Positions 39,231 through 39,332 of a stretch of 64,000 nt of DNA are shown one piece after another. The position numbers and the translations under genes are program-made. The notes beneath the pieces were generated by a model. That model worked only from the letters and a program-made list of their open reading frames with translations. It searched no databases and was not told the origin of the DNA. The stretch's first letter is position 1. Each line of letters starts with the position of its first letter. The stretch covers positions 18,919 through 82,918 of the forward strand of contig JBBDSH010000081.1 in assembly GCA_040905045.1 (NCBI GenBank). The letters are read 5' to 3'. The stretch is from Gammaproteobacteria bacterium. GTDB taxonomy: Bacteria > Pseudomonadota > Gammaproteobacteria > Eutrophobiales > Eutrophobiaceae.

Positions 39231-39329
39231 AGAGTAAGGAGCAAGAAGTGAGGTGTGAGGAGTAAAACACAAATCATTATAATGCCCGATCAACGCCTCA
39301 CTCCTCACTCCTTACGCCTCACTCCTCAC

Positions 39330-39332
<3 letters not shown>
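39231..39332. repeat. heptamer-hairpin element: (GTRAGGA)n arm - 27-nt loop - (TCCTYAC)n arm
   Basis: Left arm agagtaaggagcaagaagtgaggtgtgaggagtaaaac. Right arm cctcactcctcactccttacgcctcactcctcactca (imperfect reverse complement). Sits between E1-alpha start and lpdA, and contains the lpdA stop codon. Confidence 0.8.

Follow-up and report, generated by a model that had tools for sequence, protein, structure and literature searches.

Tandem arrays of the heptamer GTRAGGA (TCCTYAC on the opposite strand) stand at five gene boundaries in a 64-kb stretch of a marine gammaproteobacterial genome (contig JBBDSH010000081.1, positions 18,919 to 82,918; the whole stretch is called the window here), and they are a new example of a known bacterial class of heptamer repeats, that of the long simple sequence repeats (LSSRs) and the short tandemly repeated repetitive (STRR) sequences, rather than a new kind of element. 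We consider it probable that the arrays are anchored at stop codons, inherited vertically and driven by slippage, and that where two of them face each other they form hairpins that in RNA resemble those of repetitive extragenic palindromic (REP) sequences and bacterial interspersed mosaic elements (BIMEs). Bacterial tandem repeats with a 7-nt unit have been on record since the STRR sequences of cyanobacteria were described, and we know of no accepted account of why the unit has 7 nt or of what the arrays do. The present arrays join a new unit to the layout published for Xanthomonas (arrays anchored at stops with their purine strand outward, pairs that converge, four units); relatives retain the position at one junction while their units turn over, and in one relative both arms have changed together; and the single unit GTRAGGA recurs over many phyla and in viral contigs. 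All structures described below are in silico folds, and the source genome was examined over 72 kb in total, comprising the window and 8.4 kb upstream of it.

Arrays and hairpins in the window

The two-unit pattern GTRAGGAGTRAGGA, scanned over the 64-kb window with up to 2 mismatches, matched 32 times against 0.79 expected, a count that none of 100 shuffles reached; 31 of the 32 matches fell within the five loci, the lone outsider lying at 7028. Tandem Repeats Finder (TRF) returned period-7 arrays at 24286-24352, 37138-37182, 39296-39331, 46543-46572 and 49777-49806, and a scan of periods 3 to 15 over the window yielded arrays solely at 7 and at its multiple 14. At all five loci the consensus unit, GTRAGGA or TCCTYAC on the opposite strand, is repeated head to tail and in phase beyond chance, which places the arrays in the heptanucleotide class of simple sequence repeats (SSRs). 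A sequence-only reading of the window had proposed in-register GTRAGGA/TCCTYAC tandems at these five loci and had named phasing no different from that of shuffled sequence, combined with a lack of further copies in the genome, as grounds for abandoning them; all five were confirmed and the phasing far exceeded that of the shuffles. The arrays, with the stop codons of adjoining open reading frames (ORFs), are as follows.

24288 to 24352, minus strand: single array of about nine units (GTAGCGA, GTAAGGC, GTAAGGA, GTGAGGC, (GTAAGGA)3, GTAAGGG, GTCAGGA), 6 nt past the TGA (24357-24359) of the thiamine diphosphate (ThDP)-enzyme gene 24357-26099 (minus)
37133 to 37181, minus strand: single array (GTCAGGA, (GTAAGAA)5, GTGAAAC) with its five central units 100% identical, 6 nt past the TGA (37188-37190) of the E1-beta gene 37188-38195 (minus)
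39231 (or 39234) to 39268, plus strand: left arm of hairpin A (GTAAGGA, GCAAGAA, GTGAGGT, GTGAGGA, GTAAAAC)
39295 to 39329, minus strand: right arm of hairpin A (GTGAGGA, GTGAGGC, GTAAGGA, GTGAGGA, GTGAGGC), 0 nt past the TGA (39330-39332) of the lipoamide dehydrogenase gene 39330-40733 (minus)
46499 to 46533, plus strand: left arm of hairpin B (GTGAGGA, GTAAGAA, GCAAGAA, GTGAGGA, GTAAAAT), 3 nt past the TAA (46493-46495) of the BCCP gene 46001-46495 (plus)
46538 to 46572, minus strand: right arm of hairpin B (GTAAGGA, GTAAGGG, GTAAGGA, GTGAGGA, GTGTTGA)
46532 to 46597, plus strand: mechanically called ORF of 21 codons and a stop in hairpin B, translated as MLSTLLTPYPLLLTCDQIFRR
49477 to 49511, plus strand: left arm of hairpin C (GTAAGGA, GTGAGGC, GTAAGAA, GTGAGGA, GTTGGTT), with the stop (49492-49494) of the carboxyltransferase ORF 48010-49494 (plus) in its third unit
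49512 to 49771, no strand assigned: 260-nt 'loop' of hairpin C, with nested inverted repeats and unrelated to the loops of A and B
49772 to 49806, minus strand: right arm of hairpin C (GTGAGGA, GTAAGAA, GTAAGGA, GTGAGGA, GTAAAAA), the TGA of its first unit being the TGA (49803-49805) of the Zn-alcohol-dehydrogenase gene 49803-50822 (minus)

Three of the loci (A, B and C) are long imperfect hairpins, and the other two (24288-24352 and 37133-37181) are partnerless single arms. The arms are built of about four full units and one degenerate, A-rich unit, GTRAAAN, and the paired arrays are all convergent, forming imperfect inverted repeats of 28-35 bp. In hairpin A the arms are separated by about 26-33 nt, and the region 39225-39340 folded at -54.7 kcal/mol (z -8.0) on the minus strand and -39.1 kcal/mol (z -5.7) on the plus strand; hairpin B, with a loop of about 4-14 nt, gave -37.7 kcal/mol (z -7.7) on the plus strand and -48.5 kcal/mol (z -9.3) on the minus strand over 46490-46580; and in hairpin C, where 49477-49506 and 49777-49806 are complementary at 83% over 30 nt with 270 nt between them, the whole element (49465-49815) gave -128.6 kcal/mol (z -7.3). 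With z-scores of -5.7 to -9.3 the three are much stabler than their shuffles, and A and B fold on both strands. The single arm at 24288-24352 (-6.9 kcal/mol, z -0.2) is unstructured as RNA, and that at 37133-37181 has a minimum free energy of 0 kcal/mol. The inner unit order GTAAGRA, GTGAGGA, GT is common to all six hairpin arms, and the rare unit GCAAGAA to the left arms of A and B.

The spacer of hairpin C contains two nested inverted repeats, CGTCATCCCAGCG/CGCTGGAATGACG at 49618-49630/49758-49770 and TGTAATCCAGTA/TACTGGATTACA at 49677-49688/49738-49749, and a search of the window found no second copy of the spacer repeat above chance. The spacer may be a separate small palindromic element or noncoding RNA lying within the heptamer hairpin.

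The genes around the arrays are ordinary metabolic ones: a ThDP enzyme, E1-alpha and E1-beta of the acetoin/pyruvate-dehydrogenase type, lipoamide dehydrogenase (lpd), BCCP, biotin carboxylase, a carboxyltransferase and a Zn-dependent alcohol dehydrogenase. In all six gene-adjacent arms the purine-rich strand starts 0-6 nt past a co-oriented stop codon or contains that stop, so that the placement at gene boundaries noted by the sequence-only reading proved sharper than stated, the arrays lying directly against stop codons or overlapping them. The two remaining arms lie on the non-coding strand 45-50 nt upstream of start codons, the 5' end of A-left about 45 nt from the start (39188) of the opposite-strand E1-alpha gene and that of B-right 50 nt from the biotin carboxylase start (46622). 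Because GTRAGGA holds TAA or TGA and its period of 7 is not a multiple of 3, an array presents stops in all three frames within 21 nt. The array itself supplies the stop in two window genes, the carboxyltransferase ORF and the Zn-alcohol-dehydrogenase gene; the last 6 residues of the former (KVRSEA) are encoded by C-left, and its homologue in contig L121, read from DNA, ends in KLRLRRNAR and a stop.

The window also holds a second heptamer family, which the sequence-only reading had missed.

59218 to 59239, plus strand: TRF array TCGTGGC, TGGTGGC, TCGTGGC between convergent stops
63192 to 63340, no single strand: convergent pair with its left arm on the plus strand and its right arm on the minus strand

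The first of these fills the 27-nt gap between two convergent stops and begins 2 nt past the stop of the ORF at 58472-59215 (plus). In the pair, the left arm (63192-63256, plus) consists of (GTGGCTG)5 followed directly by (GGGGATC)4.6 at 63225-63256, the latter fitting the GGGNATC type of G-quadruplex-forming array of Xanthomonas and Nostoc (PMC4692102); the right arm (63310-63340, minus) has G-rich TCGTGGC/TCGGGNC units 13 nt past the stop of the ORF at 63353-63775 (minus), and the pair folded at -66.3 kcal/mol (z -2.3). Since a second family has the same layout, the source genome is prone to heptamer arrays generally, rather than host to one special element. The (GTGGCTG)5 stretch at 63192-63226 amounts to four overlapping copies of GCTGGTGG, the Chi octamer of E. 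coli. This octamer occurs 14 times in the window against 2.4 expected, with none of 100 shuffles reaching 14; nine copies are dispersed on both strands and one, at 59223-59230, lies in the second-family array. Amplification of a Chi-like sequence into a heptamer array may explain (GTGGCTG)5, or the resemblance may be a coincidence.

No heptamer array was found in the 8.4 kb upstream of the window (L128, 1-8455), and together with window positions 1-24000 this makes about 32 kb, with GC near 50%, that carry none; at the 24288 array the side of about 50% adjoins one of 56-63% GC that holds every array. Recent acquisition of an island could account for this GC step, as could a join made at the repeat during assembly. 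Neither tRNA nor tmRNA genes occur in the window. In an independent Logan assembly, run SRR27977661 gives sequence identical to that of the window, with breaks at one array and near another: short-read contig L001 begins inside hairpin B (window 46543), and L127 ends at window 59167, about 50 nt from the 59218 array. Heptamer repeats thus appear to fragment short-read assemblies and may be under-counted in metagenome-assembled genomes, which is of practical concern, as is the supply of stop codons and C-terminal residues to annotated genes.

Orthologous junctions in relatives

Closer relatives were found through E1-alpha at 96% (contig L183), 88% and 87% identity, the last two values covering L184 to L187, and in them the positions of the hairpin A junction and of the 37133 array are kept while the sequence evolves in place. 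At the lpd-to-E1-alpha junction, L184 to L186 carry a GTRAGGA-type hairpin (-51.7 kcal/mol, z -5.8), whose arms in L184 read GGA-GGG-GGG on both sides, with variant units matched and arms 92% alike in the fold comparison. This hairpin is preceded by (GTGAATA)n, with 3 units in L184 and L186 and 2 in L185, a clean 7-nt indel despite an identical E1-alpha protein in all three. In L187 the array at this junction has decayed to a fold no better than shuffles, with GTRA persisting every 7 nt, and L183, at 96% identity, has a different hairpin with CACAGAG-containing arms (-69.8 kcal/mol, z -5.1), so that some hairpin is kept there in 3 of 4 lineages. The array after E1-beta is likewise orthologous, reading (GTAAGAA)5 in the window, ACAAGTC ACAAGCT ATAAGCA and onward in L183, and GTCACAA GTCATAA GTTACAA in L187.

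By these comparisons of contigs, the arrays are shown to be old and vertically inherited at orthologous junctions within the gammaproteobacterial clade, with unit numbers that move in 7-nt steps and unit sequences that turn over, and their behaviour is that of SSRs and not of inserted mobile elements. The 7-nt indel and the concerted change of the L184 arms argue for vertical inheritance with slippage, and for copying from arm to arm, rather than for insertion in the manner of a miniature inverted-repeat transposable element (MITE). Hairpin B is, to judge from more distant relatives (carboxyltransferase 77-80% identity), a gain within the clade, because in these accB and accC overlap by 4 nt, hairpin B is absent, and no heptamer array occurs in the 10-17 kb available from them. 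A flank-gap-flank pattern for strain variants of hairpin B had 0 matches among metagenome contigs. Comparing orthologous junctions, as the sequence-only reading had advised, brought out arrays and hairpins evolving in place at lpd/E1-alpha and after E1-beta, and a hairpin B absent from distant relatives.

A mobile element of MITE or REPIN type, in which a transposase moves the hairpin in trans and the heptamer arms serve as terminal inverted repeats, would account for hairpin B at a junction where relatives of 77-80% identity have the 4-nt accB/accC overlap, for the inner unit order common to six arms and the GCAAGAA unit common to A-left and B-left, and for independent assemblies that break at arrays (L001 at 46543; L127 near the 59218 array). 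We nevertheless regard this suggestion of the sequence-only reading as very improbable: hairpins A, B and C lack target-site duplications (flanks AAGA/TCAT, ACGC/CTGT and AAAA/ACAC, respectively), their loops of 14, 33 and 270 nt are unrelated and offer no conserved core, two loci are single-armed with arms that, unlike REP units, have no internal palindrome, and orthologous arrays evolve in place in relatives.

In the slippage-based explanation that we favour, replication slippage would make arrays gain and lose units, and the opposite arm would be made and kept similar by selection that favours pairing or by intramolecular template switching across the palindrome, as the L184 arms suggest. 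Paired arrays, where transcribed, are predicted to form very stable stem-loops that would serve as intercistronic or 3'-end RNA structures, blocking 3' exonucleases or partially stopping RNA polymerase, and that would lie near enough to the upstream stop codon to affect the terminating ribosome. A terminator or mRNA-stability role for the hairpins, as the sequence-only reading had listed, is plausible by analogy.

The same observations can be read with the hairpins idle, the arrays being a neutral mutational by-product in which slippage acts on 7-nt units and selection only keeps coding DNA free of them. A clean difference of 7 nt between strains and the fast turnover of units (a decayed array in L187; a replacement in L183, at 96% protein identity) suit this account, as do the absence of a sense-strand folding bias described below, the standing of heptamers as the commonest repeat unit of 5-11 nt with slippage proposed as their origin (Mrazek 2007, as relayed in PMC4679880), and the lack of a regulatory role in Rehm 2015 (PMC4692102). 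It predicts neither the matched variant units in the L184 arms nor the retention of some hairpin at the lpd/E1-alpha junction in 3 of 4 lineages, and we hold it to be a serious but rather doubtful alternative.

Other palindromes occupy comparable positions. The E1-alpha to E1-beta junction, 15 nt long in the window and in L183, is filled in L184 (6969-7135) and L187 (6969-7129) with further GC-rich palindromes over about 160 nt, GCGGCCATGGATGGCCGT and GAATCAACCACGTGCATGGTTGATTC among them; such fillers vary among different junctions of one operon and among lineages. In the relative L125, units of about 22 nt (CCCTTGTCCTCCCGAGCCCC and onward) are repeated in tandem at 9500-9682, directly after the carboxyltransferase gene and at the position of hairpin C.

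Recurrence in other bacteria and in viral contigs

GTRAGGA arrays also occur outside the window: an exact (GTRAGGA)3 scan of one genome per species returned at least 119 stretches, and the counts for bacteria given in this section refer to the matches listed. Carriers among them belong to Planctomycetota, Gemmatimonadota, Cyanobacteriota, Bacteroidota, Firmicutes, Campylobacterota, Acidobacteriota, Chloroflexota and several proteobacterial classes, and include complete genomes and cultured strains. Complete carrier genomes are those of Halomonas olivaria TYRC17 (AP019416), Luteimonas sp. R10 (NZ_CP141262) and Stieleria magnilauensis (NZ_CP036432); cultured carriers are the first two of these, Oceanisphaera litoralis DSM 15406 and Bowmanella denitrificans JCM 13378. 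Period 7 dominated the 833 kb of matched loci: it accounted for 205 arrays, about 80 of them built from other units, compared with 0-19 for any other period between 4 and 12. The commonest array length was 4 units. Pairs in bacterial loci were convergent in 29 cases and divergent in 1, and paired arrays lay between tandem genes in 15 cases, convergent genes in 10 and divergent genes in 2. In unpaired arrays (n = 85) the purine 5' end was a median of 25 nt from an ORF, compared with 127 nt for the 3' end, and the 5' neighbour was a co-oriented stop in 65 of the 85; long ORFs ended at the GTRAGGA side in 35-56 of 100 arrays and at the TCCTYAC side in 8 of 100.

The neutral by-product account predicts neither this polarity, with a co-oriented stop at the purine 5' end of 65 of 85 arrays, nor the 29 convergent pairs against 1 divergent and the preference for 4 units. 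Spread over many phyla would also suit a mobile element, but all-against-all clustering of 2,070 ORFs from the 119 loci yielded no linked protein family, the commonest shared families being ABC ATPases (12 loci) and two-component proteins (9 loci), and no transposase was among the shared families, the ORFs of the window and of the 8.4 kb upstream not having been screened for one.

In viral contigs, exact (GTGAGGA)3 occurred in 29 stretches, compared with 13 and 12 for two composition-matched control heptamers, and pairs were convergent in all three heptamer sets (17 versus 0 in total). Ten viral loci (L129, L134, L135, L145, which equals L151 reversed, L147, L149, L152, L153, L154 and L156) carry the exact (GTGAGGA)3 near a D5-type primase-helicase gene. 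These are AT-rich IMG/VR contigs with GC of 24-46%, one of them labelled GVMAG, whose helicases (Pfam DUF5906 plus VapE-like; in L152 the gene lies at 3332-5521) are 33-53% identical, except for L152 and L156 at 88%. The hairpin or array lies mostly 5-170 nt past the helicase stop, the exceptions being L135 and L156 (about 300-450 nt downstream of the helicase) and L154 (about 500 nt upstream); in L134, L135 and L153 arrays stand on both sides of the helicase gene and bound a module some 3 kb long; the two L153 copies are in inverted orientation, with a core that by our own count is about 87% identical. The viral hairpin has the appearance of an origin or terminal repeat conserved in a small module that carries the helicase, and the AT-rich contigs look like those of viruses of eukaryotes. 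No homologue of the viral D5-like helicase was found in the bacterial loci listed or in the window.

The viral copies bear on a DNA-level element, a set of iteron-like sites or a cruciform or hairpin substrate for replication, recombination or a nucleoid protein. Strand-neutral complementarity would be expected of such an element, and so would exact (GTGAGGA)3 hairpins that adjoin primase-helicases of 33-53% identity (one pair 88%), the origin- or terminal-repeat-like arrays that flank the helicase in three contigs, inverted in L153, and the overlapping Chi octamers (GCTGGTGG) of (GTGGCTG)5. Bacterial arrays, by contrast, have no helicase homologue or other shared protein near them, their units drift among close relatives (GGA to GGG, ATA and ATC) as a sequence-specific binding site should not, and they sit at dozens of ordinary metabolic gene ends; we find a DNA-level role distinctly unlikely. 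A bolder and, in our judgement, unlikely proposal is that the purine-arm-first hairpin (GTGAGGA)n...(TCCTCAC)n is one sequence-specific element read by conserved machinery rather than many products of slippage. Its unit and polarity are the same in Gammaproteobacteria, Planctomycetota, Gemmatimonadota, Bacteroidota, Cyanobacteriota and Firmicutes, and in the AT-rich viral contigs its exact (GTGAGGA)3 arms remain beside the primase-helicase gene, at times on both sides as inverted copies, despite helicase identities of 33-53%; if the proposal held, the copies in bacteria might be hairpins that resemble origins or nick sites, or else a hairpin parasite that spreads horizontally, and bacterial heptamer 'simple repeats' would have a defined molecular partner.

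An element of translation, in which AGGAG is a ribosome-binding decoy or reinitiation site or the hairpin encodes a small peptide, is suggested by the AGGAG in each unit and, in (GTGAGGA)n, by a GTG 6 nt past each AGGAG. The short ORF of hairpin B, put forward by the sequence-only reading, exists, but its ATG at 46532, in the hairpin loop, lies 4 nt and not 6 nt past GAGGAG and opens 21 codons and a stop, not 22; it runs through the stop-free pyrimidine arm and we judge it non-coding. No similar ORF was seen in hairpins A and C or in orthologous hairpins, though no search was aimed at them, and the purine arm is base-paired within the predicted hairpin. Shine-Dalgarno use is weak in Bacteroidota and cyanobacteria. 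The arrays nevertheless occur in these groups and in the AT-rich, eukaryotic-virus-like contigs; orthologous arrays lose GGA (GTGAATA, GTGAATC, GTCACAA) and keep their period and position, and heptamers without a Shine-Dalgarno core (GGGAATC, and GTGGCTG and GGGGATC in the window) obey the same layout. The decoy offered by the sequence-only reading thus finds no support, and a translational role is extremely improbable.

Several points weigh against the explanation that we favour, that of stop-anchored, slippage-driven arrays with REP/BIME-like hairpins in RNA. The foreign loci had been chosen through the motif itself, and their ORFs were called crudely, as the longest ORFs. In the window, arms within one hairpin (78-83% alike) are not clearly closer to each other than arms across hairpins. 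A canonical U-tract is missing after every arm, and the scan for terminators made no call at the hairpins. Among pairs between tandem genes (n = 15), the sense RNA folded better in 6 and the antisense in 9, while in the window hairpin A favours the sense strand and hairpin B the antisense; without a strand bias in folding, complementarity looks strand-neutral, and it could be a by-product or be maintained in the DNA alone. We also sought selection at the RNA level by setting G-U wobbles against A-C mismatches, and rejected this as evidence on the same ground, no sense-strand bias being present. Slippage alone leaves unexplained the polarity of the purine strand and the recurrence of one heptamer in many phyla; an R-loop or Rho-related asymmetry just past the stop codon is our speculation for the purine-outward polarity. 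We infer that the position of GTRAGGA arrays at ORF ends is tolerated through their all-frame stops, and here too the units GGGAATC, GTGGCTG and orthologous GTCACAA stand in the way, lacking regular stops yet keeping the layout. At unit position 3, T, which gives TAG, was 5 times commoner than C (63 versus 13), but as a general reason for the layout the all-frame stop was rejected, arrays of GTCACAA, GTGAATC, GGGAATC and GTGGCTG having no regular stops.

Comparison with known systems

REP, BIME and REPIN sequences are extragenic, lie at gene 3' ends in tandem and convergent gaps, and as inverted pairs of units of about 30 nt form long imperfect hairpins; they affect mRNA stability and termination and, when within about 15 nt of the stop, translation of the upstream gene. 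The REP unit is a palindrome in itself, its 5' tetranucleotide is conserved, and a RAYT transposase mobilises it. GTRAGGA doublets resemble these in being inverted and at extragenic gene 3' ends, and differ from them in single arms that fold at 0 to -6.9 kcal/mol, no better than shuffles, and in arms that are tandem heptamers evolving in place by unit number; among the shared ORF families of the 119 foreign loci no RAYT was seen. A classical REP was accordingly rejected, the single arms having no palindrome, as was a clustered regularly interspaced short palindromic repeat (CRISPR) array, the period being 7 nt and spacers lacking; on both the sequence-only reading had judged correctly. Its MITE-like family, in contrast, is not upheld in the absence of target-site duplications and a shared core and with arrays kept at orthologous junctions.

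Further candidates fared no better. An integron attC site was rejected because the arms are tandem heptamers without RYYYAAC...GTTRRRY core sites and the neighbours are housekeeping metabolic genes, and a sponge RNA of the CsrB/RsmZ type because the GGA motifs lie in the stem rather than in loops. A canonical intrinsic terminator was called at none of the hairpins, the terminator count being that of shuffles, and TTTT follows a stem only on the minus strand of hairpin C. No Rfam match reached the gathering threshold anywhere in the window, and a literature search with the literal repeat strings matched only unrelated human primer sequences.

The likeness to cyanobacterial STRR heptamers pointed out by the sequence-only reading holds. 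According to Mrazek 2007, as relayed in PMC4679880, heptamers are the commonest of the 5-11-nt prokaryotic repeats and polymerase slippage was proposed for them. LSSR and STRR repeats share with the present arrays the dominance of 7-nt units, a sporadic phylogeny, a non-coding position and slippage as the proposed origin, and differ in being described as direct arrays without stop anchoring or convergent-arm hairpins. The TAACTGA heptamers of marine Beggiatoaceae, cyanobacteria and Bacteroidetes (MacGregor 2015, PMC4679880) lie mostly just upstream of start codons, in 169 direct sets and one indirect, and are predicted to be unstructured (PMC4679880). They are alike in being intergenic, in having forward-strand stops that limit overlap with ORF ends and in sharing one unit among distant phyla; they are unlike GTRAGGA in standing upstream of starts, nearly all direct and unstructured, whereas GTRAGGA arrays are stop-anchored and often form hairpins.

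The closest counterparts are the GGGAATC arrays of Xanthomonas and the GGGGA(C/T)T arrays of Nostoc, which are intergenic, prefer four units and vary between relatives (PMC4692102). Rehm 2015 described the G-rich strand as coding-side, 0-50 bp from the stop or overlapping it, or alternatively as non-coding and just upstream of a start, with GGGAATC arrays rare between divergent genes, and found no function or regulatory role (PMC4692102). With 70-75 convergent inverted array pairs per Xanthomonas genome already described as potential stem-loops (PMC4692102), the inverted-arm pairing that the sequence-only reading took as distinctive in a gammaproteobacterium cannot be so regarded. The likeness extends to the 7-nt units, intergenic position, preference for 4 units, convergent pairs and gammaproteobacterial host (Xanthomonas); the present arrays show the stop-anchored purine strand, the convergent pairs and, in relatives, the variation in unit number (L184 and L186 versus L185) that characterise the Rehm 2015 type. 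They are unlike it in that GTRAGGA includes a stop codon and an AGGAG core, that this one unit is found over many phyla as well as in viral contigs, and that a larger share of its copies is paired (3 of 5 loci in the window). GTRAGGA also has runs of GG only and no G3-4 tracts, so that the G-quadruplex account is not obviously applicable, and the 4-unit preference is present all the same. Since a unit without obvious G-quadruplex potential has the same layout, the layout and the preference for four units appear to be a property of the class, independent of G-quadruplexes.

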